A program made the position numbers and the translations under genes. A DNA stretch of 64,000 bases, taken from IMG/VR virus record IMGVR_UViG_3300023435_000009; one strand, written 5' to 3'. Within the stretch, counting starts at the first letter, position 1. Each line of letters opens with the position of its first letter. Source of the DNA: a virus. Lineage: Duplodnaviria > Caudoviricetes. Below, in pieces: positions 21,287 through 54,214 of the stretch. Under the pieces are notes generated by a model. The model made no database searches and was not told the DNA's origin. It saw only the letters and a program-made list of their open reading frames with translations.

Positions 21287-21592
21287 GTGCCTACGGAAGA
21301 GAAACAGATTGTCATGGCAAAGACGCTGGCCCGGCGTTGGTTGGGCAAGGTGGCGTCTGCGGAATACCGTGTCCGAGTCATGTATAGCTCAAGGGAATAC
21401 CGAAATCTTCCGAACCTTCTCAGGGCTTTCAGGGACGGCAAGGTCAGAATCGCAGGGTTGGCACCAGTCAAGGATATGGGCATTCGGGACGAGTTTGACT
21501 TTGTAGAGGTGTGGTCTAGGGACCATGCCGGTCTCCTCCGGCTGGGCCAGTGGTTTGAGAAACAGGGCTTTGATACAACGGGGATCTGGTAA
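21287..21592 (+). CDS. Hypothetical late protein with an LARRWL/KVA motif
   Basis: RBS aaggaggg; MAKTLARRWLGKVASA. Confidence 0.6.
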   Translation: MPTEEKQIVMAKTLARRWLGKVASAEYRVRVMYSSREYRNLPNLLRAFRDGKVRIAGLAPVKDMGIRDEFDFVEVWSRDHAGLLRLGQWFEKQGFDTTGIW

Positions 21593-22275
21593 TGGCAGGA
21601 ATCCAGGAACAAGCCGTTTACACCTTCTCCACCACGGCTGGCGGGGCAACCTACCAGTACGACATCATTGTGGACTCCCAGGGTCTCATCTCCGCTCGGA
21701 ACTTCCGAACTCCGTTGGGGTTGATCGTTGATCCCTACACCACACTGCCCGCAATGGTTCTGGAGGACGTCTACAACGCCCAGGACCAGATCACTCAGCG
21801 GGCGACGACGGCAGAGGTGTCCAGCGGGACGCTGACCTGGGCGGGGGAAACCACCCTGCCCATAGTCATTGCCGGGGGCGTCCTCAACAATACTAACTAC
21901 CGTGTGGTCTACACCACCCCCGATGGGACGCCCTTACAGACCACAGGCAAGACCATCACGGGTTGTACCGCCGAGGCCCCCGCAGCCTACGGGACGGCAC
22001 TCGTACCGATCTCGGTGCCCTACACGGTCCTGGTGGCCACGGCCAGCGTCAGCACCTACGGGGGCACGACGACAATCCTGGCGGCGGATAGCGGCGCTGT
22101 GACGATCACTTTTCCCGTTGCAATGACGACCGAAAACTATCGAGTCGTGCTGACGCCCAACGGCATCTTCCCGGTGTACATCTCGGCCCAGACTAAGGCG
22201 AGCTTCACGATCCAGGTGGGCTACACGATGGTGGTGTTGAGTTCCGTAACCGTTGGTTATGACGTGTTTGTATAG
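21592..22275 (+). CDS. Putative virion structural protein (beta-rich, T/V/A-rich)
   Basis: Two similar beta modules (NNTNYRVVYT / TTENYRVVLT); composition typical of tail or head decoration proteins. Confidence 0.5.
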   Translation: MAGIQEQAVYTFSTTAGGATYQYDIIVDSQGLISARNFRTPLGLIVDPYTTLPAMVLEDVYNAQDQITQRATTAEVSSGTLTWAGETTLPIVIAGGVLNNTNYRVVYTTPDGTPLQTTGKTITGCTAEAPAAYGTALVPISVPYTVLVATASVSTYGGTTTILAADSGAVTITFPVAMTTENYRVVLTPNGIFPVYISAQTKASFTIQVGYTMVVLSSVTVGYDVFV

Positions 22276-22278
22276 GAG

Positions 22279-22524
22279 ATGACGATGATGACTGAACTAG
22301 AACAAGCGTGGGGTCGGACGATGGTAGCAGCTCTGCCGGTGCCCACCTCAGATGTCCGTAGCAACTACCACCAGATGTCTGACGGTGTGTCTGGTCTGGT
22401 AGACGTTGTTGATGCTGATCCGGTACTTCGTCGGGACCGGCGGTTGCAGGTTTTCATGGAGAAGTTGGTGTCGGCGGAGACACATCTGCGCCGACACCTT
22501 GACCGTTATTATCAGTGGGACTGA
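22279..22524 (+). CDS. Hypothetical protein
   Basis: RBS aggag; in operon. Confidence 0.55.
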   Translation: MTMMTELEQAWGRTMVAALPVPTSDVRSNYHQMSDGVSGLVDVVDADPVLRRDRRLQVFMEKLVSAETHLRRHLDRYYQWD

Positions 22525-22580
22525 GCAATGGGGCCTACCACAGAGGTGGCCACTACGTTTGGATTTTTGAGGGGTAACCA

Positions 22581-23843: not shown

Positions 23844-23869
23844 GAGCTTCCTGAAGGATGAATAGGAGT

Positions 23870-25295: not shown

Positions 25296-25304
25296 GAGGA
25301 CGCC

Positions 25305-26860: not shown

Positions 26861-26910
26861 GCGCTAGTCGTCCTATGAGAGTACGCCAGTAGGACGATCG
26901 GAGGTTTGTA

Positions 26911-27549
26911 ATGGGGACCGACAAAGCCAACGCACTCGCCAGGCGATACCTGAAGCAAGCAGGGATGAGCCGGGTGGCCGGAGAGGTCCGGTTTATCAAG
27001 GACCGGGGCGGCGACAAGAATGAGTGGGGGTGGGGTACTCCTGGTCCTTCCGAGCGGGAGATGAACGAGGGATTCACCTTCAATCCCAAGAACTTAAAGC
27101 CTCTGTCAAAGACCTTGCGGTCCACAGTGGCATCTATGGGGCACGCTCTCTCGGCCTACGACACGTTCACCAGGCTCAAGGCATCTCAGGTGTCCCCTGA
27201 CGGTTCCCTGGGCGGCAAAGGCTATATCCAGAAGATCAATGAGATGCGTCGGCAACTCATGAACGCCATCGAAGCGTTGTCCGCTATCTCCGATACCCTG
27301 CACGACGAGATTCACGCCCCCCACTGGGATCCGGTCAAGGAAGACCAGGACAAACGGGAGCGGGAAGAGGTCAAGGACATCTTGGACGACGCTGATGAGA
27401 TCCGAAAGGATCCCGAGGGCTGGGCTGAGGGGGAGGAAGCAGAGATGGACTCCTCCAAAATCCCCGGTGGGATGGATGCGGAGCCAAAGTCGGAACCGAA
27501 GCCGAAACAGGCGTCTAGGATCAGCATGCATCAGAGGAGGGCAAAATGA
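26911..27549 (+). CDS. Hypothetical late protein with an LARRYL/KQA/RVA motif
   Basis: RBS ggagg; helical; acidic C-terminus. Confidence 0.65.
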   Translation: MGTDKANALARRYLKQAGMSRVAGEVRFIKDRGGDKNEWGWGTPGPSEREMNEGFTFNPKNLKPLSKTLRSTVASMGHALSAYDTFTRLKASQVSPDGSLGGKGYIQKINEMRRQLMNAIEALSAISDTLHDEIHAPHWDPVKEDQDKREREEVKDILDDADEIRKDPEGWAEGEEAEMDSSKIPGGMDAEPKSEPKPKQASRISMHQRRAK

Positions 27550-35406: not shown

Positions 35407-35413
35407 ACGCTAA
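33998..35413 (+). CDS. tnpB: TnpB RNA-guided nuclease
   Basis: RuvC-I VLGVDKGY, RuvC-II VVVAEDL, VNCAYTSQ, RuvC-III HSDENAARNV; Zn-finger cysteines mostly lost. Confidence 0.85.
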   Translation: MGGFTNVLKVTRILFSKDLNAGKFAVLEEQARRLGQLRSEIWQRFGSINGVGKSDREIRDEWLQQKREFDVPANAWKETLRDAISDVRASREAAKVKVRKTIHCHTKDTAERKHRYTLLKSDNWTTDPYLTRVMRKHWKRGHNHTHNQIIVRADKYRIFELDSRVWLKIPGLTPRKMVTIPLDTTVHPTGTLRLILRDDRVEIHYQIEVKKENRHGDTVLGVDKGYTEVFVDSDGEHHGKELGKLLSSESDYLKTKHQRRNKIKAITERKPHKRANIERNNLGRKKLDRRDRVVKAHVRDKVFKAAHAVVDKAEVVVAEDLTFPISSRKSYGRNMNRRLSAWTKGVIAESLDSVSQRRGSTLALVNCAYTSQVDSRYGVLRGRRRGDSFYCFDGVVLHSDENAARNVLARHYDFEIGRWTSYREVRSILLERTECHRLGLLNQDTSCRPEGLSTVSELPFGHMSYLKRNRR

Positions 35414-42200: not shown

Positions 42201-45200
42201 TGGCTTCGGGTGATCGTACCGTCAGCCAAGATCGCCAACCTCCAGGGTGTGGTGGAAGTCCCGAAAAACACCCACCCAGTCAAGGTGGAGCCGCCCAAGG
42301 CCAAGAGGAAGCAGTTTCCCTTCGTAGGGTACATCGACTTCCAGGGCATCAAGATTGACGTTGAGAATAAGCAGGGGGACGTGCGGAAGGGTGTCAGCCC
42401 TGATGGTGAAGAGTGGGAAACCCACATGTTCCACCATTATGGCGAAATTCGGAATACTGAGGGTACAGATGGCGATAAATTAGATGTTTATGTGGGGGAC
42501 AATCACGACTCTTCCCTGGCGGTCGTTGTCCACCAGCAGGATCCTGACTCAGGCAAGTTCGATGAGGACAAGGTCATGCTCGGCTTTGATTCGGTCGAGG
42601 AGGCCATCGGAGCCTACAAGAAGCAGTACGACCAGCCTGGGTTCTACGTTGAGGGCGAGCACCTGGAGATGCCCATAGGGCAGTTCTGGCGCTGGGTCAA
42701 TGAGGACCGGAACAAGGGTAAGAAGGTCAAGGATGCTGTTGTGCATACAGCGGCCCAGCACGCCCCCTCTACGGCCCCGACGTGGTTTCCCGAGGTAGAG
42801 GGGCGGGTCACAGACATAGCGGCGTCAGGGGACAACGACGAGGGTTGGAAGGCAGCGTCCCAGCGGAGGACTGCCGAGCATAATGACGATTACCAGAGAC
42901 GGGAGAAGGTGCTGCCGGAGGACCTAGACTTTGCCCGGAAGCACCATCTGCCCTTAGAAGAGGATCAGTATTGGGGCACTGTGGTGCCCCTTAAAGCGCT
43001 TTATACAAAGCGTCCCCAATACCACATTTTTGGCATGAACTTAGGTGATCAGAAGCGGTTTGTTTTCGCATCCATTCCTTTGTCCTTGTTAGTCCCGGCT
43101 CAAGAAACTGTCTCGTTGATAGGGCTGCATCGCTACACCGAAGGAAATGTGCGGAGTGACAAGGGTGTACCAGAAGTAGTGCTCTGTGAGTCAGCTTTTT
43201 TTGTCATGGAGGGGCACACCCGGTTGGCCGCAGAGAGGCTCAGAGGGCACTCACGGGCCGAGGTGAAGCTGTTCCTTTATGACGGTAAGAAGTTTCGGAA
43301 GCCTACAGATGAGGATCTGCCCTCATCTGTGCGGCTCCTTAAAAGGAGGCGGAGAGCAACCGCCGCCCAGCGGATAGCAGATCGTTACGTTGAGGGCCTG
43401 CAGATCAACCTGAACGTGGGTGACCCCGTTTTCTACGGGAAATGGAAGTCTTCGCCAGGTACCATCAAGGACTTCAAAACGGATCCCAAGAGCGGTGACC
43501 CTGTTGTGACGGTCGAACCTTATCCGAAGGGACGCAAGAAGCCGAAGGATCTCAAGCTCCTCAAGATCAGGGAGCGGCAGCCCAAGCCAGAAGAGAAGAA
43601 GGCTGGGATGCTGGAGCCGCCTCCGGCGATGGTGAAGTCTGTCCTTGAGTGGGTCATGGCCGTGACACAGAGCACTAAGGCGTTCCGGGCCAAGGAGGAT
43701 TTGGCAAAGGCTCAGGATGTCCTTCAGGCGTTGACAGCACTCAAGCGGGACATGACGAAGCAGCGGGGTGTTCTTGAGGACGCCGTTGCGGATCCGAAGG
43801 TCGGTGTCCGGGCCGAGTACGCAGCCCTTAAGCAGTACGTGGAGACCCTCTTTGAGGACAACCGGAGGACGGCGGTCTTTGTGCAGCGTCTCGTGTGGGG
43901 GCCTCCCAAGTTCAAGAAGTTCACTGAGGCCCACAACAAGGGTGACCTGCCAAGGTATGTGAGGTCAGTCGGTGACGAGGTAGACGAGGCCCTTGCGGAC
44001 AGGATGAAGGCCGTTAAGGGACAGGTCCAGAAGCTCCGGGCCGGGGCCGGTGGTCCCTCAAAGGTGCAGCCAATAATGCCCGGAAAGGAACTGGTAACCC
44101 GGATCCCCGTAGATCTGCGTGGGTGGAAGTACGAGGGGCAGGTTACCGTAGAGAAGGGGGTCAAGGGACTTGTAGATGTCATCACCAAGGCCATGGCCCG
44201 TAAGACGGACATCGATGAGGAGTCCCGGAAGTTCTTTGACGAGTTGATGGAGGGCAACAAGAAGCAGTGGCAGTCTATCGCTGTAAAGTTGGACCCGAAC
44301 CAGACCCCTCACGGGAGATGGCAGTCCGCAACCAAGATGCTGACCCTGAAGTTCGGTGGTCCCGAGAAGGACGCCGCATGGTACCGCCCCCTCATCGAAC
44401 ATGAGTTGCGGCACGTTGCACAGGATCTGATCAATTTCTCCGAGGGTCTGTATGACAGAGGGGGCCGACCTTCTCGTAAGATGCTTACTCCAGACTACAC
44501 CCAGCAGGACGAGGATGCGGCGAGGCAGAAGCTGAGGGCCGTGGGCATCGATCCACGTCAGGTAGCGATTCATCATCTGGACGATGTGGAGTTCTACACG
44601 GACCTGGCAGACGCTGTCGGAGAGTACAAGAGGCAGCAGCCAAAGTTCGACCATCTCCCTCGTAATGAGACCATCAGGTTCTTTGTGGGTGGGAAGGCCA
44701 ATCCTGAGGTGGCACAGGAACTTCGCAGTTTGCGGATGCACCCCCTCCCCTTCTTCACGACGTTGAAGAGGGTTCCTTCCGCAAGGGGTAAGTACCAGAA
44801 GGCTGTGAATGAACTGCTTAAGGCCACGGGCGGGTCCGCTACCAGGGTGGCTCTCCGTTACCTCCAGGGGAAGCAGGCTGGCGTGTTCCAGGGGCCACCG
44901 GCGCTGTTGAAGACCATCCAGGAGTGGGCGCTGGCCACCTACGCCGGACACATCCTCGCTGGGGTTGAGACAGACCTAGAAACGATCCTTGACGCCAAGG
45001 GGCCGATCAAGAGGGCCATCCAGGACATGGGCAAGGGATACGATGAGGTCACTAAGGCGGGCAGTCTTTCCGTTGGCGGATCCTTCAAGTTCCCGATGAC
45101 GGACACCTTCGGCGGTTCCAGTAGTCTCTCCAAGAGTGTCTGGGGGGTCAAAAGGACGGGGGAAGACGTCTACCTGATCGGGAAGGGTGACCGTTCCGTT

Positions 45201-48200
45201 TCCTGGAAGCCCCAACAGTTGCCCTGGCAGTGGGGTCGTGGACCGTGGACCCTTGAGGAAGTCAAAAAGCATCTGATGCCCTACATCAGCAGGGCGACGC
45301 AGAGGATGCGGTCGAAGCTGGATCAACCTGTTGTTGACCCCAACATGCCCAAGGCCGTGGAGTTAACCCTCCTGAAGCGAAAGTGCCTCCAGTACACGAC
45401 TAAGGCCAAGCATTACTCCGGGAAGGCCACCACTAAATTCAAGCTGGATCTGTCCGGTTGGAAGTACCTACCCAATCCCCGAGAGGCCGAAAAGCACATC
45501 AAGGATGAAGAAGGTTGGGATGTGGTGAAGGTGGTGCTGGACTTCAAGGGGAGCCAGACAAAGGGCGGCTACTGGTCCCTCAAGGAGAGGACCCTGGACG
45601 TAGAGATCGGGGCCGGGGCCACCAGCCACTATATCCGAACACCAGAGCAGGCCCGGACGGTGTCTCTGTTCGAGACAGGTATAACGCAGATCACAGGGAC
45701 TTGTCGTCATGAGGTCCAGCATATTGGACAGGATGCCCTGAGGCTCGCTAAGGGATTATCGGAGGACGCAGGTCTCCCTGGCCGCACTCTACGGAACCCG
45801 GACTTCACCCCCGAGGGGCGGAAGCTGCACGTCCCTGAGGGGGATGCTCCTTCTGGGAAGGTACACCCGCTTCGGGATGTGGAGTTCCATACCCGGATCC
45901 AGGACGAGATAGAGAAGTTCTCTCGCTTTGTGCGGAAGGGTGTTGTCGCCAAGGCTAAGATCAAGGAGGCCCTCCATATCTGGGTGGGGGCGTCCCCCGA
46001 GAATGAGATGAAGGATCCAGACGGCAAGGTCATCATGACCACGCAGCAGTTCTTCTACTCCCTGCGGAAGTACGAGAAGGGGAAGTGGCAGAAGGCCGTC
46101 GATGAGTTCAGGAAGGGTCTTATGCGGAAGGGTCTCCGGATCAGTTCTGAGGACATCCAGTCGGCCATGACGCAGAGGGTCAGGCAGGACCAGGAGTACT
46201 TTGCCTCGCTCTTGGGCACTGTCGCTCAGATCCAGTCCGAGATCGATGCTCATCCCGATTATTACTCTACATCGGACAAGAACAGGAAGCTCTGGTTGGC
46301 GTGGAAAGATCTGGCTTTGCTAGGGGATCGGCTGGCCAGGGCCGTGTTGGATCAGAAGAGCATCCCGCCGGGCAAGAATAAAGCCTTCGAGTTGGCTGCT
46401 CGTGCCTTCATCTCTATACGGGGGACTCCCCGTGACATTGAGAAGTGGATGGTGAAGAACAAGCGGCACATCAACCTTCTCAACGACACCGTAGACTGGC
46501 CAGACAAGTCAGAGGACGAGAAGCTCAAGGTGGGGGCCTTTACGGTACACAACACCCTTGGGTTGGAAGGGGCGGACCTTGACCGAAGTAAGAAGAACGT
46601 TCAGAAGGCTGAGTCGCTGATTCGTCGGATGCCCTTTCCGAAGGGACTCAAACAGGTTCTTTATGGGGACGTTTACATAGTAGCTCGGCTAAACAAAACC
46701 AAAACGTGGGCCTTCTACTACCCTCGGGACGACAACGTCTATGTCAGGGCTGACACCAAGGGTGTGTTGGGAGAGACTCACAGCCTTATTCACGAACTGG
46801 CTCATCGCTATTGGGAACAGTTCGCATCCGTTTCCAAGAAGCACGCCTGGATCCGCCACCACGCCCATATGTCCGGCAAGAGCATGCCCGCCGAGAAGAT
46901 GCCGATGCCGAACGTTGGGGAGACTCTCCCCCTCAAGATTCCGGGTGCCCCTCGGGGGTTCGAACCTGTGGTTTCCCATGTCCATGCCGGGAAGTACTGG
47001 TTCGATGTGCCCTCCAAGGATGGGAAGACGACCAGGACGATGAACTACCCCGTCCACGAGATGGCGAAGTTCCTTTATGACCGGGACGAGAGGACAAAGC
47101 GGCGGGAGACCTTCCCGACCCCCTATGCAGCGAAGAACGCTGAGGAACACTTCTGTGAATCCACGGCATTGAGGGCATTGGGCAAACTGAAGGGGTCAAA
47201 CTTGGATGAGTACGACCGAATCTGGGGTGGCTCAGGGGGGCGGGTGGCCAGTCAGGACTCATCAGTAGAGGCCAAAGTGGACTTCTCTGGCACTCGTTGG
47301 GTAGTGGCACCCCCGTCCAAGTTGGACGAGGCACAGGCTGAAACCGTTTGGCAGGTTTATCATACATCCTATGGGAACCTTGGTGAACACATCTCAAACC
47401 TGTCGGAGCTGTTGTCCAAGTACCAGTTGTTCTGGCTCGTGGATGTAGACGGGGATGAGAAACCGGATGCGTTCATTGCCTATAAAAAGACCCCAGCGGG
47501 TAAGAAGATAGGTGTTATCGGTTCTGACGGGTCTCCGTTGGCCAAGCGACTAGTGGTACGGAAACTCCTCCAGTTGTTTCAGGGCAACGGGTACTACGTC
47601 GAGGCTTCGGGACGACCGGCACAAATGCTAGACTCCGCTGGGGTGCCCCATGTGACGGATCAGGCTGATGTGGAGGCCGTGATGGCTCCGAAAAAGATCC
47701 ACTGGTTGGGGGACGGTAAGTACACCAGGGCCATTGGTGGTTTGGGGACGAAGGAGAAACGCTTGTACGGACATCCCAGGATCCCACGAGCACGTAAGCA
47801 GGCACGTCGGTTGGCCACCCGCTGGCTCAGGTCCTCTGCGAGCATCCCGGCCCAGCAGATTGCAGCACGTTATCTGGAGGCCGGTGCCTACCCCACAAGC
47901 CGTTTGGTGGAGGGTCCACTCATTGACGGGCATATCCCACCGAGAACCCCACAGGGACGGCCTCCGGCGTATTTATACCGCTCTATGCCGGTGGCGGAGT
48001 ACGAGGCAGCAGTGTCTCGGGGTCAGATGCGGGGGCGTCCGCTCCACGCCGCAGGCGAGCCTGTTTTCTACACCCTCAACCCAGGCGAGAACGTCCTGGT
48101 CGCAATAGAGTACCGTGACCGAGATGGCTGGGACTCCAAGGTGGGTATGGGAGGCAGCACCATTTACGCCATCACCCACGACGCTATTCCGATGTCGAGA

Positions 48201-48335
48201 GTTGCTGAGTTGGCACGGGGGGCCAAGGGGGATCTGAAACGGTGGAAGTCCGCTGCCAAGTTCAAGGACAAGAAGAAGGTCAAGAAGCAGGATGGCGGCG
48301 AGATGACCGGAGGTAAAGCTGATGTGTTCTTCTAA
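39237..48335 (+). CDS. Giant polyvalent protein (2H phosphoesterase, CCA/poly(A)-type nucleotidyltransferase, four HExxH zincin modules, InPase, ParB-like, SH3-like, possible GNAT- and ART-like domains)
   Basis: PHST/PHVT; VVGGAVRN..IKDIDVV..RRDFSFN..FSDDPSRM; HEMGH 41802, HELRH 44400, HEVQH 45708, HELAH 46791; HYGEIRNTEGTDGDKLDVYVG..DEDKVMLGF; VMEGHTRL. Confidence 0.85.
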   Translation: MKRADAENGKKTGDRSDVGLFIPLPGDLASQFPDLGSNDQSVPHSTFLFVGSVPQGREERLLEVVRGVLAELSGPVRAQLASDIEYFVHPAKQRRVAVLPVRFSHDLAAIRWKLRDALVDDGFDVDDSFPLIYRPHVTLEYLNDLDETYVGTVPSGGWSLNGIEVWGLPRVVEVPFSSVSKLAHRHVESKAHHRSVALMKFLSGVARKLGVGNDVYVVGGAVRNFVLDPTGLKYPIKDIDVVIDPVALRRPDASDWFAQKVKRAIPVDVSLVTNSYGVSIVTITGDWILDGVSMAGEVIEIANARTESYGGTAGKGYKPHLVEPATIEEDVKRRDFSFNTLLWRMHDLANGPDQVAILDLTGCGMKDLQDGWMRCPSKPDRTFSDDPSRMVRTIKFMLKYGFKISSEVKASIKKNAPKLKNIPPGHLSNMIIETFFTPGVGKKALLEMDKLGLLEVTRDIARKDKKFRQALANWADAHASVEFIFDLMDLGMPSGKRLGFLKPAQKDRVREITVQMDADGSDAFVRLLEQPGKVLDMPGLITEYGFKGAEIRALVEAARTALLDEPLLASSGRKWEDKIRRRLGKPAGKTAGNEAHVVASKPVVIDEVHLKKLKKDFLTFTRQIKKPKDYDQARYMADAYTRWRVQFEDFIKRLWKYMDGLHWRHPNLFSENDRDYWRRVVGEDTWVLQTENFPLQHPDDYWTEEQCVAEFEQRRGPWVRKVQRGAREAWSRLDDFVSWMETNRLQALQTEGDKVTLEYPEVYKENIDGFQLTFKGIEPDDRAEVKGFLAGLKRYKALAAKRMPLLLRRKLPIVVNSMGEVGLEWGGQYHTRYIDFNLASSSSSGIQNRTVHVLAHEMGHHIFKSLGSKSRKFWDTLIRGDMEPLDLKKIYPLMKAGEDLQWLAFDIEEKDPILALQLTGVSEDWRWKHNVPTKEKVKEFIDGGEVQIHVPKRPITYYASKNPEEAFCEVVGLLVANGPGSVDNEILHWLRVIVPSAKIANLQGVVEVPKNTHPVKVEPPKAKRKQFPFVGYIDFQGIKIDVENKQGDVRKGVSPDGEEWETHMFHHYGEIRNTEGTDGDKLDVYVGDNHDSSLAVVVHQQDPDSGKFDEDKVMLGFDSVEEAIGAYKKQYDQPGFYVEGEHLEMPIGQFWRWVNEDRNKGKKVKDAVVHTAAQHAPSTAPTWFPEVEGRVTDIAASGDNDEGWKAASQRRTAEHNDDYQRREKVLPEDLDFARKHHLPLEEDQYWGTVVPLKALYTKRPQYHIFGMNLGDQKRFVFASIPLSLLVPAQETVSLIGLHRYTEGNVRSDKGVPEVVLCESAFFVMEGHTRLAAERLRGHSRAEVKLFLYDGKKFRKPTDEDLPSSVRLLKRRRRATAAQRIADRYVEGLQINLNVGDPVFYGKWKSSPGTIKDFKTDPKSGDPVVTVEPYPKGRKKPKDLKLLKIRERQPKPEEKKAGMLEPPPAMVKSVLEWVMAVTQSTKAFRAKEDLAKAQDVLQALTALKRDMTKQRGVLEDAVADPKVGVRAEYAALKQYVETLFEDNRRTAVFVQRLVWGPPKFKKFTEAHNKGDLPRYVRSVGDEVDEALADRMKAVKGQVQKLRAGAGGPSKVQPIMPGKELVTRIPVDLRGWKYEGQVTVEKGVKGLVDVITKAMARKTDIDEESRKFFDELMEGNKKQWQSIAVKLDPNQTPHGRWQSATKMLTLKFGGPEKDAAWYRPLIEHELRHVAQDLINFSEGLYDRGGRPSRKMLTPDYTQQDEDAARQKLRAVGIDPRQVAIHHLDDVEFYTDLADAVGEYKRQQPKFDHLPRNETIRFFVGGKANPEVAQELRSLRMHPLPFFTTLKRVPSARGKYQKAVNELLKATGGSATRVALRYLQGKQAGVFQGPPALLKTIQEWALATYAGHILAGVETDLETILDAKGPIKRAIQDMGKGYDEVTKAGSLSVGGSFKFPMTDTFGGSSSLSKSVWGVKRTGEDVYLIGKGDRSVSWKPQQLPWQWGRGPWTLEEVKKHLMPYISRATQRMRSKLDQPVVDPNMPKAVELTLLKRKCLQYTTKAKHYSGKATTKFKLDLSGWKYLPNPREAEKHIKDEEGWDVVKVVLDFKGSQTKGGYWSLKERTLDVEIGAGATSHYIRTPEQARTVSLFETGITQITGTCRHEVQHIGQDALRLAKGLSEDAGLPGRTLRNPDFTPEGRKLHVPEGDAPSGKVHPLRDVEFHTRIQDEIEKFSRFVRKGVVAKAKIKEALHIWVGASPENEMKDPDGKVIMTTQQFFYSLRKYEKGKWQKAVDEFRKGLMRKGLRISSEDIQSAMTQRVRQDQEYFASLLGTVAQIQSEIDAHPDYYSTSDKNRKLWLAWKDLALLGDRLARAVLDQKSIPPGKNKAFELAARAFISIRGTPRDIEKWMVKNKRHINLLNDTVDWPDKSEDEKLKVGAFTVHNTLGLEGADLDRSKKNVQKAESLIRRMPFPKGLKQVLYGDVYIVARLNKTKTWAFYYPRDDNVYVRADTKGVLGETHSLIHELAHRYWEQFASVSKKHAWIRHHAHMSGKSMPAEKMPMPNVGETLPLKIPGAPRGFEPVVSHVHAGKYWFDVPSKDGKTTRTMNYPVHEMAKFLYDRDERTKRRETFPTPYAAKNAEEHFCESTALRALGKLKGSNLDEYDRIWGGSGGRVASQDSSVEAKVDFSGTRWVVAPPSKLDEAQAETVWQVYHTSYGNLGEHISNLSELLSKYQLFWLVDVDGDEKPDAFIAYKKTPAGKKIGVIGSDGSPLAKRLVVRKLLQLFQGNGYYVEASGRPAQMLDSAGVPHVTDQADVEAVMAPKKIHWLGDGKYTRAIGGLGTKEKRLYGHPRIPRARKQARRLATRWLRSSASIPAQQIAARYLEAGAYPTSRLVEGPLIDGHIPPRTPQGRPPAYLYRSMPVAEYEAAVSRGQMRGRPLHAAGEPVFYTLNPGENVLVAIEYRDRDGWDSKVGMGGSTIYAITHDAIPMSRVAELARGAKGDLKRWKSAAKFKDKKKVKKQDGGEMTGGKADVFF

Positions 48336-49152
48336 CTTTATCGGACAGGTTTATTCCTTGCATGATCCTGTGACACAGGAGTTGCGTTATGTTGGACAAA
48401 CAACACACACACTGGAACATCGTTTGAAACAACACTTGAAGCAGTTGAAAAAAAGCACACACAAAAACAACTGGATTCGGTCTCTTCTTCCTAGTCGACC
48501 TTTGATTCGGCACGTTTGTTTCGCTGCCTCTCAGTCTGAATTGGATCTTCTGGAGATAGGCCACATCGCAAAAACAAAAACCTCTGGGTGTCGTCTGACT
48601 AATGCAACTACAGGGGGGAGGGGAGGGAGGCATTCTGCTGAGACCATCGCAAAAATGAGAGTGGCACACACAGGAAAAGTGTTTTCACAGGAGGCTCGAC
48701 AAAACATGTCCAAGGCAAAAAAGGGTCATCCTGTTTCGGAAGAGACCAGACGTAAAATTGCTGCCGCAAATACAGGACATGTGCCATCGCTGGACACTCG
48801 AACCAAATTAAGTTTAGCACTTCTTGGCCATACCGTTACAAGTGAGACGAGACAACGCATCTCAGAGGGTAACAAGGGCAAAGAGCGTACTGCTGCTTTT
48901 CGAAGACATCTATCGAAAATTAACCTTGGAAAGAAACACACGGAAGAGTCTAGGCTTCGAATGTCGGGGCGGGTGATGCCTGAGGAGACCCGACAGAAAA
49001 TTTCTAGGGCATTGAAAGGGCGAGCAAAAGAGGGGATGTCCGAAGAAACCAAGCGTAAGATTTCGGATGCCAAAAAAGGAAAGACACTGTCCTTTGAGAC
49101 CAGGCAACGAATGTCAGAGGCGCAAAAAGTCCGATGGGCAAAACAAAAATGA
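48322..49152 (+). CDS. GIY-YIG homing endonuclease with NUMOD3 repeats
   Basis: VYSLHDP...RYVGQT...RLKQH; repeated SEETRRKI/SETRQRIS units; AT-rich; ggaggt RBS. Confidence 0.88.
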   Translation: MCSSNFIGQVYSLHDPVTQELRYVGQTTHTLEHRLKQHLKQLKKSTHKNNWIRSLLPSRPLIRHVCFAASQSELDLLEIGHIAKTKTSGCRLTNATTGGRGGRHSAETIAKMRVAHTGKVFSQEARQNMSKAKKGHPVSEETRRKIAAANTGHVPSLDTRTKLSLALLGHTVTSETRQRISEGNKGKERTAAFRRHLSKINLGKKHTEESRLRMSGRVMPEETRQKISRALKGRAKEGMSEETKRKISDAKKGKTLSFETRQRMSEAQKVRWAKQK

Positions 49153-52100
49153 AGACCTTTTTTGATGATGAAAGGGTGGTGCGCCGGATTGCAACCCTGT
49201 ACGTATGCCGGGTTGCACAGGATCACAAATACAAAAAAAGGCACAAGTCCCCTGGCGGAACTAAGATATACGAGTACAGCGACCGTCATGTGAACGACCG
49301 GAACAAGGGCAAAGCCCAGAAGGTTGAAAAGCTTCGGCATGGCATCACCAAGCTCCGGGGTCAGGTCCATAAGGATCTCAAGTCCAAGGATGAGAAGACC
49401 CGTGCAACGGCCCTGGCTGTTGGTCTCATGGACGCCACCTACGAAAGAATTGGTAATCCGACTTCTGCCAAAGAGGGCCATTTTGGGGTCACTGGATGGA
49501 AGGCCCAACACATCACATTTTCCGGGGGCACAGCCACCATCAAGTACGTTGGGAAATCCGGCGTGAAGCATGAGAAGGTCATCAGCACCCCAGGTTCTGT
49601 GGCGGCGCTCAAGGCTGCTGTGAAGGGTAAGAAGCCCGGAGACACCGTGGTGGACGCCTCAGCAGAGGATGTGAACGGATACCTCAAGCCCTTCGGTGTC
49701 ACCGCCAAAGATATTCGTGGCTTTCATGCTAATACAGAGATGCAAACCCGGCTCAAGGCTATCCGGTCCAAGGGCGGCAAGCTGCCCACCGACAAAAAGG
49801 AGCGAGAGAAGGCCCTCAAGGAGGAGTTCAAGAAGGCCCTGGCTGAGACAGCCGAGGCGGTAGGGCATGAGGCAGCTACGTTGAAGAGCCAGTACCTTGT
49901 GCCAGGTTTGGAGTCCGATTTCCTTAAGGATGGAACGGTCAACGACAAGATGGTGAAGAAAGGCTCAGAGTTGGCACACCGCTGGTTGAAGACGGCCATC
50001 ATCAACATCAACAACGCCACCGATGGTCCCGAAGGAGATCTGATGTTGAGGGGCGACTACGGGCTCCAGTCCAGCCTGACTTACTACGAGCAGGCGATCA
50101 TGCAGGATTTGATCATCCACCACCACCCGATCCTGAACACTCCCGAGGGGTATACGCTCAGGGGGCACAAGGTCGGCCCCAGTGCTGTGTGTGAGTTGAT
50201 GGGAGCCGGATACCTGGAGGACCATGGCGGGGAGATATACTTGTCCCCTATGTACGAAGCCAAGCAGAAGCTCTACCGGACAGCCTCTTCATCCAGACTG
50301 ATCCTGTTGTATGAGCGGCACTACCCACCCGAGGACAGGTCCATCGAGCATTACGCTGCTTGGCGCAACAGCCTGACCCTCCCGATGGCCCGGACGGCAG
50401 CCTATGACATCATCAGACACTGCCCCCATTGTCAGTGCGTCCTGCACGACGGTCCTCGCTACCATGAGCACTGCGACGACTGTGGGTACGACGTAGATTT
50501 CCCAGGCGGACGGGAGCGTCTGAAGGACGGGGAATGGACACCCATCCCCGAGGATGACCCCCGGCTGGTCCTGTTCAAAGAGAAGAAGGCAACGCAACTG
50601 GATGCTTTCGAGAAGATGTGGCGGACGGCAACCAAGACCCACGGGGAACGTGAGGACGAGGAAGCCGAGCGGTTGCTACGCCCCGAGCCTAAGAAGAAGC
50701 CCCCCCGGAATGATCTCCGCCGGGAGCAGATGAACACGGACAAGGACAAGGACACAGAGTCGGAGGGTGCTGACGGGGACAAGGACCTCTCTTTGAATTA
50801 CAAGCGGATTGCCCTGCGCTGGCTCGCTGCGGCTGGTGAACACAAGCCCGGCGAGGTGTGGCAGACGGAGTCCGGTTGGGCAGGGCAGAACCCAGACGGT
50901 GTCCCTCATACCTTCAAGGATCGGACGAAAGCCGAAGCCTACGCCAAGGGTCAGTCCGAGGCCCCTGAGGACGAGGAGAAAGCTGCCCCTGAGGAGGAGC
51001 AGTCCCCTGAGACCACCCCTCAGCCTGAGGAACCGAAGAAGAAGCCGAAGCCCCGGAAGGATCCTGAGCAGGTTCGATTTGACCGGAAGGTCCAACGGGA
51101 GGTGAAGAACCTGAGGGCAGAACGTAAGGGTGTCAAGGACGCCAAGGTGGAGCTTCGTCAGGCCAAAAAGGATCTCAAGGAGGCTCGTGCAGAACTCAAG
51201 GCAACCCAGAAGGGAACGCCTGGGTACGTCATAGCTAAGGATACAGTCGACACTGCCAAGGAGTTGGTGGACCAGGCCCAGGAACAGTTGGACACGGCAA
51301 CGGAGTCTTTCGAGGCCACCAAAAAGCGGGTGGAGGAGATAAAGTCAGAGCGGGTGGAACGCTACCCCGACAGCAATACGGAGTTGGGCCGTATTCGTTT
51401 GCTCCTTCGAGAGTTTGATCAGACGTCAGATGATGACAATGACGGGAGTATGAGGGCCGAGACGCTTGAGGATAAACTCTCCAAGTACGACGTTGCTTCT
51501 CAGGAGCAGGCAGCCTCTGCTTTCCAGAAGGAAAGCACCTCCTTGGCCCATCAGGAGTTAACCCCTGAGTTGGTTCAGGAGATCGTGGCAGCCGAGAAGC
51601 AGCTTAAAAAGAAGGGCCTGTCCGCCGAGGTTTTCGGGGAGTTGACTGCCCGTGTGATGTTCGGGCACAGCATCCTGGCGAACCCCACCAAGGTTTCGCC
51701 TATGCGTGGAGTCGAGGTGGATGGTGCGGAGCAGGCGAAGATCGCCAGAGACTCCTACGATCACTACTCTAAGCTCAATCCCGAACTCCGGGCCAACGCA
51801 TTCCGGCAGGCAGCGGAGGAACTCAAAAAGCACCCGGACGATTCACCCGATAGTGTCCATCTGTCCCGTGTGGTGGATGGTCTCTACCTGGCCTCAGTAG
51901 CGGCTGGGGATGATGACTCCGTGAGGGAGACGGACGGGAAGAGACTCATTCCTGAGCCGTCCGGCATCTTCAAGGCCCTGGTTAAGATGCAGAAGGGCGA
52001 CGACAGTTTTGGGAGCGAATCAGGTGACCTTGTAGATCTCATGTCTACTGAGTTCTATGGACCCAAGGGAAGGGCTGCACTGCGGACCCGGATCTCAGAA

Positions 52101-52718
52101 TTGGATGACAATGACCTGACCAACCTGTTTACGGGAGGGGATCAGGAACTGGATCGGATGATCCAGGACGCCCTTTCCAAAATGACAGAGCCTTGGCAGC
52201 GGGAGTTGCTCAGGGGTCTGATGCAGGATCTGACCCTGGACTCAATGACGACCCAGCATGCAATCCTGACGAGTCAGGCGGGGGCTGAGGAAGGCCCCGA
52301 AACTCTGAAAAACCAGGGCACCCGGTCCATGCCTAAGACCCCGGAGGAGATGGACTACACGCTGACGGACTATCGGCGTCGGGCAGCAGATGCTGCTTCG
52401 GATGAGATGGAGGCTCTCTTGGCGTGCCTGAGGGGGCATAAGGATTCTGAGACCGCTCGTCAGGCGTGTCAGGAGAAGGCAAATGCGTACCGGATCAAGT
52501 CCCACGCTGGGTTCCTGCAACTCGTAACTGATGAGTTTGGTATCCGAGATGAACTAGATCCTTTCCTGGTTCAGTTACGAACGATGTTGGATCGTCAGGA
52601 TCTCGCAGAACTTGATTTCAAGTTTGTTTCTGAGGGAGCAAAAACGGCGTTTACACGGAAAACAGTCCGTGCAGTTCAATCCTCTGCCTATACGGATGAC
52701 ATAAAGGCGAGGGGCTGA
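49149..52718 (+). CDS. Polyvalent protein with an N-terminal type IB topoisomerase catalytic domain
   Basis: ERIGN (R), YVGKSG (K), TAKDIR (R), AVGH (H), SQYL (Y) pentad; followed by unrelated modules and a coiled coil. Confidence 0.8.
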   Translation: MKTFFDDERVVRRIATLYVCRVAQDHKYKKRHKSPGGTKIYEYSDRHVNDRNKGKAQKVEKLRHGITKLRGQVHKDLKSKDEKTRATALAVGLMDATYERIGNPTSAKEGHFGVTGWKAQHITFSGGTATIKYVGKSGVKHEKVISTPGSVAALKAAVKGKKPGDTVVDASAEDVNGYLKPFGVTAKDIRGFHANTEMQTRLKAIRSKGGKLPTDKKEREKALKEEFKKALAETAEAVGHEAATLKSQYLVPGLESDFLKDGTVNDKMVKKGSELAHRWLKTAIININNATDGPEGDLMLRGDYGLQSSLTYYEQAIMQDLIIHHHPILNTPEGYTLRGHKVGPSAVCELMGAGYLEDHGGEIYLSPMYEAKQKLYRTASSSRLILLYERHYPPEDRSIEHYAAWRNSLTLPMARTAAYDIIRHCPHCQCVLHDGPRYHEHCDDCGYDVDFPGGRERLKDGEWTPIPEDDPRLVLFKEKKATQLDAFEKMWRTATKTHGEREDEEAERLLRPEPKKKPPRNDLRREQMNTDKDKDTESEGADGDKDLSLNYKRIALRWLAAAGEHKPGEVWQTESGWAGQNPDGVPHTFKDRTKAEAYAKGQSEAPEDEEKAAPEEEQSPETTPQPEEPKKKPKPRKDPEQVRFDRKVQREVKNLRAERKGVKDAKVELRQAKKDLKEARAELKATQKGTPGYVIAKDTVDTAKELVDQAQEQLDTATESFEATKKRVEEIKSERVERYPDSNTELGRIRLLLREFDQTSDDDNDGSMRAETLEDKLSKYDVASQEQAASAFQKESTSLAHQELTPELVQEIVAAEKQLKKKGLSAEVFGELTARVMFGHSILANPTKVSPMRGVEVDGAEQAKIARDSYDHYSKLNPELRANAFRQAAEELKKHPDDSPDSVHLSRVVDGLYLASVAAGDDDSVRETDGKRLIPEPSGIFKALVKMQKGDDSFGSESGDLVDLMSTEFYGPKGRAALRTRISELDDNDLTNLFTGGDQELDRMIQDALSKMTEPWQRELLRGLMQDLTLDSMTTQHAILTSQAGAEEGPETLKNQGTRSMPKTPEEMDYTLTDYRRRAADAASDEMEALLACLRGHKDSETARQACQEKANAYRIKSHAGFLQLVTDEFGIRDELDPFLVQLRTMLDRQDLAELDFKFVSEGAKTAFTRKTVRAVQSSAYTDDIKARG

Positions 52719-52785
52719 GTGCCCAGCGCTTACCTCCTTTGGGAGGAGCTAATCCGGTCGGCAGACCACATGAGGAGGAATTCCG

Positions 52786-53622
52786 ATGACTGAAATGACG
52801 AAGAAGGGCGCTCAGGTAGTGACCAATGATCTGGATCGGGTTGCGACCCTGTTCCAGCAGGATTGGGCCACGCTGGGTATTCCGCAGAAGCTGGCCGTGG
52901 ATTTCGCATACCGTTGTGATCTTCTGAGCGACGCCGTCGAGAAGAGAGCTGGGGTGCCGAAGACCGCAGCGCCGGACTTCAACCCTGAGGAAATCGGGGA
53001 GGAGAAGGCCGGGCCACTCGAAGACGAGCTGGACGAGGCTTTCATGAAGGGCGAGTTCACCCAGCAAGAGAACCGGGAACTGCGTGAGCGGTACCAGGAC
53101 GGCGACCTGGGCATCACCCCCAACCTCGACCCACAGGCCCCCGCCAGCGGCAAGCAGGGTTTCGAGCAGGTCGGCAGGGACAGCCTGAGCAGCAGGCTCG
53201 CAGCGCTGTGTACCCGTGTGCAGGGTCATGCCACCCGGTGTGGATCATCTGATCCGGCCCTTGCCGGACGCATGTTCCGGCTCGCCAGTGCCCTCCTGGA
53301 CGTGCAGCGGGACGTGCTGACGGGGAAGACCTCGGCGGACCACGCTGTTCGGACGCTCCAGGCCAGCAATCTCCTGAACACTGACAGCCCCTCGGACAAG
53401 TTCGCAGCGCTGGTCGCCCATGCAACCAGGGTGGCGAAGAAGTCCGAGGACGAAGACGAGGACGTTCCTGACGAGGGCAAGGAAGCCGGAAAGATCCCAC
53501 CCCAGTTCAAGGAATTCCTCGATAAAAAGAAGGACGAGAAGGGCGACGAGGACAAGGATGACGACAAGGCCGACGACAAGGGCGACAAGAAGGCCCACGG
53601 CTACAACCTGTTCGCCCAGTAA
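52786..53622 (+). CDS. Putative capsid assembly/scaffold-like protein
   Basis: RBS gaggagg; highly GC3-biased; acidic and Lys-rich tail with GKIPPQF. Confidence 0.5.
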   Translation: MTEMTKKGAQVVTNDLDRVATLFQQDWATLGIPQKLAVDFAYRCDLLSDAVEKRAGVPKTAAPDFNPEEIGEEKAGPLEDELDEAFMKGEFTQQENRELRERYQDGDLGITPNLDPQAPASGKQGFEQVGRDSLSSRLAALCTRVQGHATRCGSSDPALAGRMFRLASALLDVQRDVLTGKTSADHAVRTLQASNLLNTDSPSDKFAALVAHATRVAKKSEDEDEDVPDEGKEAGKIPPQFKEFLDKKKDEKGDEDKDDDKADDKGDKKAHGYNLFAQ

Positions 53623-53632
53623 GGAGCCCAGC

Positions 53633-54214
53633 ATGACATCCACCAAATCCGCAGCTTACGTGGATTTCCAACAGAGGGCTAAGGAGTTCTCTGTCGGGGA
53701 TGAGGTGTCACCGCTGTTCTCCCTCCAGGTCATCGTAGGACGTGTCGTAGCCGTGTGGCCCGCCATCGGAATGGTGGACGTTGAGTGGCCGCACGGCTCC
53801 GAACGAGTCCCCGTAGAAGACCTCCAGCGGGGGAATGGTTCCGAGTTTACCCCACCCGAGACGGACAGCGCTAATGTCCCTGGTGGTGAGGGTACGGTTT
53901 CAGTCCCCGGTGGTCCCAAGGACGCTGTCACCAGGGTCGCCACTGCTTATCTGAAAAAGTCCCTTTACTGGGCAGCCCGTGATCGTCACTACAAGGCAAC
54001 AGCCGAGGAGATCACCAGCGGGCAGTTCAACTGTCCCAAGTGCAAGGGTGCCTTCCTTCGTCCTGCCACGTACAAGCGGGCGGAGGGTGTGAGTGATCGT
54101 CTGCTGGCCTGTCCGGAGTGCCTGTTCCTCATCAAGAGGAGCGCCCTGATAGGGCATCCTGACTACATTGACGATGGGATTGACGGTGTCCAGGCGGATA
54201 GGAAGGTGGTCTAA
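53633..54214 (+). CDS. Hypothetical protein (SH3-like plus Zn ribbon)
   Basis: FSVGDEV...GRVVAVW..MVDVEW; CPKC...CPEC; RBS aaggag. Confidence 0.6.
   Translation: MTSTKSAAYVDFQQRAKEFSVGDEVSPLFSLQVIVGRVVAVWPAIGMVDVEWPHGSERVPVEDLQRGNGSEFTPPETDSANVPGGEGTVSVPGGPKDAVTRVATAYLKKSLYWAARDRHYKATAEEITSGQFNCPKCKGAFLRPATYKRAEGVSDRLLACPECLFLIKRSALIGHPDYIDDGIDGVQADRKVV

Follow-up and report, generated by a model that had tools for sequence, protein, structure and literature searches.

A short helix motif on unrelated proteins of huge uncultured phages: a candidate capsid-targeting tag

The head module and its split polyprotein

The window (the whole 64,000-nt stretch analysed here, with 20,424 aa of protein searched for the motif) belongs to a clade of huge uncultured phages of 0.4-0.6 Mb. 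Its replication/recombination block (1-21 kb) encodes RecA, SbcCD-like proteins, a PD-(D/E)XK nuclease, Toprim, a clamp loader and a sigma factor. The genes of the head module that matter here are the following.

39237..48335, + strand: 3032-aa polyvalent protein, encoded immediately behind the portal gene; it is the upstream half of a split polyprotein
48322..49152, + strand: free-standing GIY-YIG/NUMOD3 homing endonuclease gene, which splits the ancestral polyprotein
49134..52718, + strand: 1194-aa protein, downstream half of the polyprotein, with TopIB (residues 55-251) and small domains
53633..54214, + strand: Zn-ribbon protein of about 193 aa, its start likely at an internal Met
54214..55791, + strand: head maturation protease homologue, core about 58-268 (phrog_18299, phrog_2774)
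55788..57089, + strand: scaffold-like protein, so assigned because its gene follows that of the protease and precedes the decoration/MCP genes, an order shared with Tunturi_5
58122..59000, + strand: major capsid protein (MCP), 292 aa (phrog_2522, E 9e-47)

The 3032-aa protein combines a 2H phosphoesterase (41-147, below the Pfam cut-off), a CCA-adding/PolyA_pol domain (215-425) and an InPase (1031-1154). The PHROGs matched by the InPase are labelled minor head protein, virion structural protein and DarB-like. HExxH motifs occur four times in the 3032-aa protein, at residues 856, 1722, 2158 and 2519; the 1194-aa protein has a long helical C-terminal region. In relatives the polyprotein is unsplit, as a single ORF of 1800-2740 aa. 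The ORF at 54214-55791 had been taken for a protease in the preliminary description, and its matches to PHROGs, Tunturi_5 and phage G identify it as a head-maturation-protease homologue (43.5% identity with Tunturi_5 gp331, E 4e-55; 33% with phage G gp19). It carries a C-terminal extension, a helical bundle at about 421-510, that is present in 56 window-clade loci versus 0 Tunturi-clade loci; the Zn-ribbon family is found in 57 window-clade loci. The scaffold-like protein is conserved over its N-terminal ~230 aa and C-terminal ~50 aa, around an acidic/K-rich low-complexity middle. The MCP is 86-96% identical across 80 loci.

An enriched motif at termini and in linkers

The preliminary description had noticed a short helix motif, placed at N-termini and domain junctions of otherwise unrelated late proteins. 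Its account of the helix and of the coordinates stands: all eleven strings that it cited occur at their positions in + strand ORFs (KLAHRHVESKA starts at 39777). The consensus is [RK]-[VIL]-A-x-R-[WY]-L, with Ala preferred at +8/+9, and the sites in the window, with motif-profile scores, are these.

21326..21343, + strand: N-terminal tag LARRWL, residues 14-19 of a 101-aa ORF (21287-21592); score 22.7
26935..26952, + strand: N-terminal tag LARRYL, residues 9-14 of a 212-aa ORF (26911-27549); score 22.2
39780..39797, + strand: degenerate tag LAHRHV, residues 182-187, between the 2H and CCA domains; score 13.3
43374..43391, + strand: tag IADRYV, residues 1380-1385, followed by a small beta module (VGDPVFYGKWK...); score 25.5
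44847..44864, + strand: tag VALRYL, residues 1871-1876, closing an HExxH module on its C-terminal side; score 25.1
47811..47876, + strand: tandem tags LATRWL (2859-2864) and IAARYL (2875-2880); scores 22.9 and 25.1
48237..48254, + strand: degenerate tag remnant KRWKSA at the conserved pre-TopIB junction, end of the 3032-aa ORF
49188..49205, + strand: degenerate tag IATLYV, residues 19-24, upstream of TopIB; below the profile threshold
49971..49988, + strand: tag LAHRWL, residues 280-285, directly after TopIB; score 16.9
50808..50825, + strand: tag IALRWL, residues 559-564; score 29.3
53936-53953, + strand: tag-like helix VATAYL, between a beta domain and the Zn ribbon; score 14.1

Enrichment over shuffled proteins is clear, since the strict form [ILV]A.R[WY][LV] has 8 matches in the window against 0.11 +/- 0.32 expected (300 per-protein shuffles, with a maximum of 2 in any of them), and a profile trained on 39 instances gives 10 matches scoring at least 13 against 0.18 expected. 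Out of sample, the window-derived expression was applied to two independent complete relatives: G001 has 8 matches where 0.85 are expected (2 with the reversed motif as control), and G003 has 13 where 0.77 are expected (0 with the control). The codons vary synonymously at each motif position, which places the selection at the protein level, and the consensus is maintained among proteins with only 40-60% overall identity. Comparison of the copies in the window and in relatives reveals no conserved flank outside -3 to +9.

The three looser examples are degenerate copies at places where relatives have strict tags. LAHRHV corresponds to R-LASRYV in locus L006; VATAYL corresponds to R-IADRWV in the L020 orthologue of the Zn-ribbon protein; IATLYV, which lies in helix H5-32 of the AF2 model (pLDDT ~50), corresponds to VAARWL/VAAKYQ ahead of TopIB in relatives, the consensus among 22 homologues being R-x-A-A-K-Y. 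The KRWKSA site aligns with R-VAARWL-KSAAGKYKDKKTVKKQDGGEMT of L020. At the IALRWL site, DLSLNYKR-VA-x-x-WL is kept in nearly all homologues. The orthologues of ORF 21287-21592 in G001 and G003 have VARRWV at the equivalent site, and in the family of ORF 26911-27549 the tag, N-terminal in the window, is C-terminal in G001, where a weak N-terminal copy accompanies a strong C-terminal one, RVASRYLLQERDQ*.

The 60 unique copies divide into 13 at N-termini, 23 at the extreme C-terminus (0-13 residues after the motif) and 24 internal ones, mostly in giant proteins. The extreme C-terminus, overlooked at first, is thus the commonest terminal site in relatives, and the terminal bias is marked both in G001 (10/17 matches versus 2.7 expected, P = 6e-5) and in G003 (11/20 versus 2.35). 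For internal copies, the position at domain junctions is borne out by Pfam, no internal window copy lying inside any Pfam domain match, and by the AF2 model of the 1194-aa protein, in which tags 280-285 and 559-564 form the isolated helices H277-293 and H556-567 within segments of pLDDT <50 (275-315 and 515-568), both linkers being flanked by confident domains. The model thus shows internal copies as isolated helices in predicted disordered linkers. A few profile matches do fall within folded domains, for instance in the RNB RNase of G001, and are probably due to chance.

Could the motif simply have been inherited as part of a mobile structural module that domain shuffling has spread, with no shared binding function? 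An example would be the helix that leads or trails the small beta module VGDxVxYGK[YW]K: copies adjoin such a module at residues 1380-1440 and 559-610 in the window (the AF2 model places a beta domain at 570-610, after IALRWL), and the module that follows IADRYV is again found beside tags in L065, L075 and L094. We consider this very improbable, as most terminal copies have no adjoining beta module, similarity stops at -3 to +9, the helix sits on at least 10 unrelated domain families at either end, orthologues gain or lose it at either end, and its consensus outlasts the divergence of its carriers.

What the helix may do

The carriers, about 15-20 genes per genome, include TopIB, the CCA-adding enzyme, 2H and HAD_SAK_1 (HAD) RNA-repair modules, GNAT, C39-like and other peptidases, SWIM-finger proteins, a DUF3293/SAM-lyase-like protein with tags at both ends, and a Dps/ferritin-like protein of G001. 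The CCA-adding enzyme is fused in the window but is a separate protein in L021, where its tag is C-terminal, and the window HExxH module with VALRYL is homologous to a stand-alone G001 protein of 265 aa (206237-207034) that has its tag at the C-terminus. Internal copies of the polyprotein thus match terminal copies of stand-alone homologues, so that modules bring their own tag upon fusion.

It had also been proposed that the protease cuts near [KR]-x-A, so that the helix and this triplet would form the recognition and cleavage code by which the prohead protease (54214-55791) releases separate enzymes. A genuine homologue of head maturation proteases does adjoin the polyproteins, internal tags lie in exposed linkers, T4 and phiKZ-like phages trim targeting propeptides at short consensus sites (PMC10052503; PMC9958956), and [KR]-x-A is indeed 3.3-fold enriched within 10 aa downstream of the helix (16/39 unbiased instances versus 4.8 expected). 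However, the triplet is present in only 16 of these copies and its Ala falls almost exclusively at +8/+9, on the hydrophobic face with A1, W4 and L5, so that we take it for the helix end, not for a site of its own; the other flanking positions are unconserved. Moreover, a cut downstream of the 23/60 tags that end their protein would free nothing, and releasing cargo would need a cut on one side of N-terminal tags but on the other side of C-terminal ones. The further junctions once listed (GKTA, EKKA, GRVA) and the KEA/KKA repeats of the scaffold, a low-complexity K/E/A protein, cannot be distinguished from chance, [KR]-x-A occurring in ~12% of all 10-aa windows of these proteins; WKSA is part of the degenerate tag that ends the 3032-aa ORF. 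We therefore regard a cleavage code as improbable. The four HExxH motifs make self-processing by embedded zincin-like modules an alternative (PMC5512222).

The distribution of the tag bears on its possible destination. The early replication proteins had been said to lack the helix, and neither the strict expression nor the profile has a match in the 1-21 kb block of the window, whereas the densest cluster of tags lies between portal and protease. The profile finds no tag in the protease itself. In complete genomes the carrier genes form clusters. They are spread over 100-500 kb of the complete relatives, so that the tag is not limited to the head module: about half of the carriers lie far from it and have no known function. 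The window clade has 31 unique tag copies in 615k aa and the sister Tunturi_5 clade, whose MCP is only 48% identical, 1 in 488k aa; judging from these sequences, only one clade, with a 91%-conserved MCP, has the tag.

This dispersal would equally suit a helix that docks on a non-capsid hub and has nothing to do with packaging, be it a replication/transcription compartment, a chaperone, or an AAA+ unfoldase/protease (phage or host) reading terminal degrons. Such a hub predicts identical sequence statistics, and many carriers are nucleic-acid enzymes equally able to act within the infected cell. Degrons recognised by ClpX are typically terminal, and the terminal bias seen here is typical of degrons too. 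Nevertheless, C-terminal tags are followed by anything from 0 to 13 residues, and the internal copies that lie in linkers are conserved as well, a poor fit to a free-end degron; three near-complete clade genomes have no ClpP and no ClpX-type AAA_2 gene; replication proteins are untagged, and the densest carriers, the head-module polyproteins, are of a class predicted to be packaged. We think that a non-capsid hub is unlikely, though it is the alternative to be taken most seriously.

We favour, with a probability of roughly one half, the hypothesis of a portable capsid-targeting peptide that works in any position, in the manner of the T4 capsid-targeting sequence (CTS) or the cargo-loading peptides of encapsulins. 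A docking helix of ~10-12 residues, [RK]-[VIL]-A-x-R-[WY]-L-x-x-[A], would present a hydrophobic face (V0, A1, W/Y4, L5, A8/9) between two arginines, on flexible linkers at the N-terminus, at the C-terminus or between modules. It would most likely address proteins to the assembling prohead, and tagged proteins would then be packaged alongside DNA and delivered into the next host; encapsidation and injection are what we infer from sequence as its outcome. Capsid packaging is predicted for phage polyvalent proteins whose genes lie beside those for portal/terminase (PMC5512222), and enzymes of kinds known or predicted to be packaged by phages, the density of tags in the head module and the untagged replication genes all fit a cargo tag. 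The tagging half of the original proposal is thus compatible with all computed results; the protease-release half finds no support in them. The partner would be a prohead component: the MCP, the scaffold, the C-terminal extension of the protease or a small head-module protein. The MCP and the scaffold-like protein are candidate receptors; a conserved tag requires a conserved partner, and the MCP fits, being 91% identical between the window and G001 when all other shared proteins are 24-74% identical.

Comparison with known systems

Encapsulin cargo-loading peptides are short and conserved, follow a flexible linker, are usually C-terminal, and load enzymes, ferritin-like proteins among them, into a shell of HK97 fold. 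The Dps/ferritin-like protein of G001, which terminates in RVASRYMK*, recalls them. However, the present case is a genuine tailed phage, which has a portal, a terminase and DNA; its consensus bears no relation to theirs, and any binding to the shell protein is hypothetical (for an overview of encapsulins see PMC8346489).

The T4 CTS of IPII and IPIII (Mullaney and Black 1996, via PMC9958956), as far as that account describes it, is likewise a peptide of ~10 residues common to unrelated proteins; it directs foreign proteins into the core and is thought to address the prohead interior, and T4 cargo includes anti-defence proteins delivered with the DNA. It is described there as strictly N-terminal, on 2-3 proteins, and followed by a gp21 cleavage site, whereas the clade tag is N-terminal, C-terminal or internal, marks ~15-20 genes per genome with another consensus, has no cleavage site detected beside it, and has a putative targeting role. 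P1 DarB, whose first 30 residues suffice for capsid targeting (PMC9024508), is a giant polyvalent anti-restriction protein that bears a targeting signal and is packaged in the head; the clade tag differs in being a sharp consensus common to many proteins. T4 gp21, phiKZ gp175 and SPN3US gp245 resemble the present protease as head maturation proteases near internal head proteins, in giant phages too, but their 3-4-residue cleavage consensi were mapped by MS and their propeptides have no common sequence (PMC10052503), in contrast to a common helix with no inferable cleavage consensus.

Finally, the 3032-aa and 1194-aa proteins are textbook examples of the polyvalent proteins of phages and conjugative elements, with many effector domains (2H, CCA-adding, InPase, zincin-like HExxH, TopIB) beside the portal. 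Iyer et al. 2017 (PMC5512222) described the domain repertoire of such proteins and their possible processing by peptidases; no common inter-module or terminal address motif is described there, nor does the word "linker" occur, whereas the proteins of this clade do have such a motif.

A short peptide shared by unrelated proteins

The preliminary description had noticed a helix motif that recurs in otherwise unrelated late proteins, and this observation stands: all eleven strings offered as examples are found in the window where they had been placed, and the strict pattern [ILV]A.R[WY][LV] occurs eight times in 20,424 aa, versus 0.11 times in shuffled sequences (2 at most). Three looser examples turn out to be degenerate copies, the same positions in relatives carrying strict tags. 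Since the pattern had been picked after inspection of the window, it was tested on independent data. The strict pattern gives, in 100 related loci, 40 matches on the coding strand versus 2 on the other strand, and the complete huge-phage relatives G001 and G003 contain 8 strict matches versus 0.85 expected (reversed motif, 2) and 13 versus 0.77 expected (reversed motif, 0), respectively. A profile made from 39 unique copies matches 10 times in the window (0.18 expected), 17 times in G001 (about 1.2) and 20 times in G003 (about 0.6).

The consensus reads [RK] at position -1 followed by [VIL]-A-x-R-[WY]-[LV], with Ala favoured at -3 and +8/+9 and no further conserved position. Codons vary freely and synonymously at every motif position, which indicates that selection acts on the peptide; a DNA-level repeat as the origin of the motif is ruled out by these same differences. 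A Tat-like signal can be rejected as well, because most copies lack an RR pair (position 2 is R in 5 of 39), its spacing is unlike that of the Tat consensus, and tags are also found at C-termini.

The relatives of the window are huge uncultured phages (IMG/VR contigs of up to 618 kb, with major capsid proteins, MCPs, 86-96% identical), and one of them, the complete G001 (536 kb), is syntenic with the window in its segment at 128-181 kb. Megablast detected no match between the window and cultured phages; by MCP identity, Tunturiibacter phage Tunturi_5 (48%) and Bacillus phage G (38%) are distant cultured relatives. For the window's clade, head-module loci amounting to 615k aa yield 31 unique strict tags; for the Tunturi_5 clade, eighty loci (488k aa) yield a single one, no more than chance would give. 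Weaker variants occur in LR745208.1 (485 kb, MCP 85% identical), among them a C-terminal tandem, VAMRHL...VAKRHL. No tag is present in the head regions of Tunturi_5 and phage G, save two motif-like strings in the phage G portal gp14 (LARRYM and VARRYL, 37 residues apart; L101:13494-13622). A de novo scan for terminus-enriched motifs in a reduced alphabet was too noisy to be of use: it recovered the known tag only at rank 922, because multidomain carriers were merged by single linkage, spurious ORFs were included and the background contained internal copies.

Main genes of the window (nearly all window genes are on the plus strand; the head module starts at about 30 kb)
1-21 kb: replication/recombination block (RecA, SbcC/SbcD-like pair, RlaP nucleotidyltransferase, PD-(D/E)XK nuclease, Toprim, clamp loader, sigma factor)
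30698-33967: large terminase
33998-35413: transposase-like ORF (phrog_506/12300), between terminase and portal
35950-39201: portal
39237-48335: 3032-aa polyvalent protein
48322-49152: GIY-YIG homing endonuclease
49134-52718: 1194-aa TopIB protein
Next, before the Zn-ribbon protein: 278-aa protein
Between the 278-aa protein and the protease: Zn-ribbon protein, about 193 aa
54214-55791: head maturation protease homologue
55788-57089: scaffold-like protein
Between scaffold-like protein and MCP: decoration-position ORF
58122-59000: MCP

The 60 unique copies of the tag are borne by at least 10 unrelated domain families.

Carriers of the tag
TopIB, in three separate versions
CCA-adding enzyme
2H phosphoesterase RNA-repair module
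HAD_SAK_1 RNA-repair module
GNAT
C39-like peptidase
HExxH modules
L129:6984-7478, minus strand: Dps/ferritin-like protein of G001, 164 aa, last residues RVASRYMK, then stop
DUF3293/SAM-lyase-like protein, with a tag at both ends
SWIM-finger proteins of 500-970 aa, just downstream of the MCP
Conserved helical protein of about 125 aa, downstream of the MCP, with Gly-linker and C-terminal tag
Several small proteins of unknown function

Carrier genes are clustered (P = 0.002 in G003, P = 0.024 in G001) and are nonetheless spread genome-wide, beyond the head module. Two small N-terminally tagged genes each have, about 40 nt upstream, the 10-mer CCTATGAG[AT]G (21243-21252 and 26872-26881, its only exact occurrences in the window); it may be a common promoter element, two sites being too few to evaluate this. 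In the early region, the intergenic stretches upstream of 5936 and 8198 have GGATCATCT-N-AC...GAGTAG in common.

Position of the tag and rearrangement of its carriers

Among the 60 unique strict copies, 13 are N-terminal (at most 25 residues from the end; the relatives' genes being crude longest-ORF sets, some of these offsets may be wrong by a few residues), 23 are C-terminal, with 0-13 residues after the motif, and 24 are internal, the median length of their carriers being 1381 aa. Terminal tags account for 10 of 17 copies in G001 versus 2.7 expected (P = 6e-5) and for 11 of 20 in G003 versus 2.35 expected. The C-terminal ones come after Gly-rich linkers (e.g. ...AFGGGG...R-VAxRYL), and no tag lies inside any Pfam match. 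In a model of the 1194-aa protein (folded with a 22-sequence alignment; mean pLDDT 70), the tags at 280-285 and 559-564 are predicted to be short isolated helices (H277-293 and H556-567) within long segments of pLDDT below 50, between TopIB (about 30-275) and small confident domains. Burial inside folded domains, which would have spoken against the original proposal, is thus not what this model predicts. A small beta module (VGDxVxYGK[YW]K...VEPxPKGRKK) often adjoins tags (window 43419-43556 and 50841-50960; related loci L065, L075 and L094), and the N-terminal domain of the Zn-ribbon protein resembles it.

Comparison of stand-alone and fused forms suggests how internal tags arose. The ORF26911 family has an N-terminal tag in the window and, in G001, a weak N-terminal and a strong C-terminal copy; the CCA-adding enzyme, a domain of the 3032-aa protein in the window, is in the related locus L021 a separate protein tagged at its C-terminus; the HExxH module that ends at window tag 1871 has as its G001 counterpart a stand-alone 265-aa protein with a C-terminal tag; and in G003, tags separate the 2H, CCA-adding, TopIB and GNAT domains of a 2493-aa protein. 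The internal tags are thus most plausibly former terminal tags, kept by modules that were later fused.

The large proteins of the window have the features of phage polyvalent proteins (2-15 effector domains in a head/portal context), with 2H, CCA-adding, InPase and TopIB domains and four HExxH motifs, and the gene of the 3032-aa protein is directly 3' of the portal gene. The PHROGs matched by the InPase module bear the annotations minor head protein, virion structural protein and DarB-like. Four of the five HExxH motifs in the whole window are in the 3032-aa protein (residues 856, 1722, 2158 and 2519, i.e. nt 41802, 44400, 45708 and 46791); two of them lie in repeats of the module that in G001 is a stand-alone, C-terminally tagged protein, and the fourth module (residue 2519) groups with ATLF/M90/Mx1-type zincin peptidases in a language-model atlas lookup, which we take as a lead only.

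The 3032-aa and 1194-aa ORFs are, by comparison with relatives, a single ancestral polyprotein split by a GIY-YIG gene. This free-standing GIY-YIG/NUMOD3 gene (48322-49152) sits exactly within the conserved junction ...tag-KYKDKK-VKKQDGGEMT / VYEYS..., the break being between ...KKQDGGEMT and (V/I)YEYS (48237-48335; 49134-49260), and relatives have one continuous ORF of 1800-2740 aa at this site. Both halves retain a diverged tag copy and a K-rich linker at the break.

The portal has 1083 aa versus 565-570 aa in G001 and G003; between its two conserved parts (residues about 1-305 and 816-1083) lies an insert, in all likelihood an intein, that matches LAGLIDADG_3/Hom_end at about 665-728. ORFs 17086-17745 and 18906-20039 match one clamp-loader-like protein of 472-473 aa in G001 and G003 and are separated by a LAGLIDADG_2 endonuclease ORF (17738-18922); by sequence, a mobile element, or possibly an intein or intron, has split this gene too. 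The large terminase has 1089 aa versus 624-653 aa in relatives, the extra N-terminal part of about 500 aa, with weak helicase/endonuclease-like PHROG matches, being either an insertion or a fusion. The transposase-like ORF has no counterpart in G001 or G003, and an 855-aa ORF just after the MCP (59154-61721), with LAGLIDADG homing-endonuclease and DNA-methyltransferase-like PHROG matches, is at a position where relatives have other genes.

The maturation protease and the proposed cleavage code

ORF 54214-55791 had been taken for the protease of this phage, correctly in our opinion: it is homologous to head maturation proteases (phrog_18299, E 5e-12), is 43.5% identical to Tunturi_5 gp331 (E 4e-55) and 33% identical to phage G gp19, and lies between the internal-protein genes and the scaffold/MCP genes. 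Phmmer found no match to it among PDB sequences, and its AF2 model (mean pLDDT 45.5) is too low in confidence to be used for the fold and catalytic residues. Given this homology, maturation cleavage very probably occurs in this phage.

That the protease would cut at or near the tag, at a [KR]-x-A code, is another matter, and we found no sequence evidence for it. [KR]-x-A is indeed 3.3-fold enriched beside the helix, but only 16 of 39 copies have it, and the Ala at +8/+9 belongs to the helix face; no position is conserved outside -3 to +9 of the tag, and more than one third of all tags end their protein. Because [KR]-x-A is present by chance in about 12% of the 10-residue windows of these proteins, the GKTA, EKKA and GRVA junctions and the KEA/KKA repeats of the low-complexity scaffold, which had been advanced as further cleavage sites, are without information. 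As an alternative route, the 3032-aa protein might process itself through its four HExxH motifs; embedded metallopeptidases have been proposed as self-processing agents of polyvalent proteins (Iyer et al., PMC5512222).

Probable docking, candidate receptors and known systems

Judging by its consensus, the tag would be a classic amphipathic helix that docks into a hydrophobic groove rimmed by acidic residues: V0, A1, W/Y4, L5 and A8/9 lie on one side of it, with R-1 and R3 flanking them. We are confident that the helix is a docking peptide; that it is a capsid-targeting tag, the reading suggested by analogy with the T4 capsid targeting sequence (CTS), the P1 DarB signal and the cargo-loading peptides of encapsulins, we consider an even bet. 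The step from docking peptide to capsid is one that we infer, and it agrees with the predicted packaging of phage polyvalent proteins (PMC5512222). A degron for phage-encoded ClpXP is without support, since G001-G003 (three near-complete genomes of the clade) have no ClpP or ClpX-type AAA_2 gene.

A well-conserved tag requires a conserved partner, and the MCP, 91% identical between the window and G001 when every other shared protein is 24-74% identical, is the most conserved protein, so that its interior is the first candidate receptor. Over 80 loci this 292-aa protein is 86-96% identical versus 44-61% for neighbouring head proteins, an unusually strong constraint. Other candidates are the scaffold, of which both ends are conserved, the small head-module proteins and the C-terminal extension of the protease (55414-55791, residues about 400-525), a predicted helical bundle of pLDDT 64-86 in an otherwise poor model. 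This extension, which may serve as tag receptor or anchor the scaffold, occurs in 56 loci of the window's clade versus none in the Tunturi clade (median protease length 503 aa versus 300 aa). BLAST detected none of the Zn-ribbon, 278-aa, scaffold and decoration proteins in the Tunturi clade, and for this reason phylogenetic profiling does not separate the candidates. Complex prediction with the tag peptide (residues 1-45 of ORF26911), MCP and scaffold gave a score of 0.08 (mark, 0.32), values that speak neither for nor against binding.

We put forward with some caution, at a probability of roughly 0.45, the hypothesis that one position-independent address peptide lets this clade load its HK97-fold capsid, in an encapsulin-like manner, with an "injectome" of some 15-20 proteins per genome. 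The injectome would include RNA-repair enzymes, TopIB, a SAM-lyase-like protein, a Dps-like protein, peptidases and giant polyvalent proteins, whose modules would retain the tag while shuffling between stand-alone and fused forms.

The contents of the heads of huge phages, and how they are selected, are largely unknown because almost none of these phages is cultured. With a sharp tag that can be recognised in the sequence, one could predict, for hundreds of metagenomic genomes and in a testable manner, which proteins are injected; if our reading is true, sequence would suffice to list the injected set, and the tag would be a compact handle for loading foreign proteins into very large capsids. 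It would also explain the assembly of polyvalent proteins from tagged modules that undergo fusion and splitting, the splitting being here even due to a homing endonuclease. Even with a non-capsid partner, a motif on about 15-20 unrelated proteins per genome would point to an undescribed hub in huge-phage biology.

Our searches of the literature turned up no shared, position-independent tag described for huge phages. For P1, the packaged Dar proteins yielded no consensus (PMC9024508), and reports on phiKZ-like phages cover propeptide lengths and cleavage motifs, a shared address sequence being unmentioned (PMC10052503). The natural comparison for a capsid-targeting tag is the T4 CTS (PMC9958956), a short peptide common to unrelated head-internal proteins, and in this the tag (60 copies in at least 10 families) resembles it. 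However, the T4 CTS is at the extreme N-terminus, where only 13 of 60 tags are (23 being C-terminal and 24 internal), and it is followed by a prohead-protease cleavage consensus through which it is removed, whereas the tag is without such a consensus. As a short terminal peptide on a flexible linker (Gly-rich or of pLDDT below 50), it also fits the cargo-loading peptides of encapsulins, and the tagged Dps/ferritin-like protein of G001 parallels their ferritin-like cargo; but an encapsulin shell is non-viral, with no portal, terminase or genome, and the window encodes terminase, portal, protease, scaffold and MCP. By these analogies, the tag seems to behave like a CTS or a cargo-loading peptide, departing from the T4 CTS in two of its defining features, and it belongs to a true virus.
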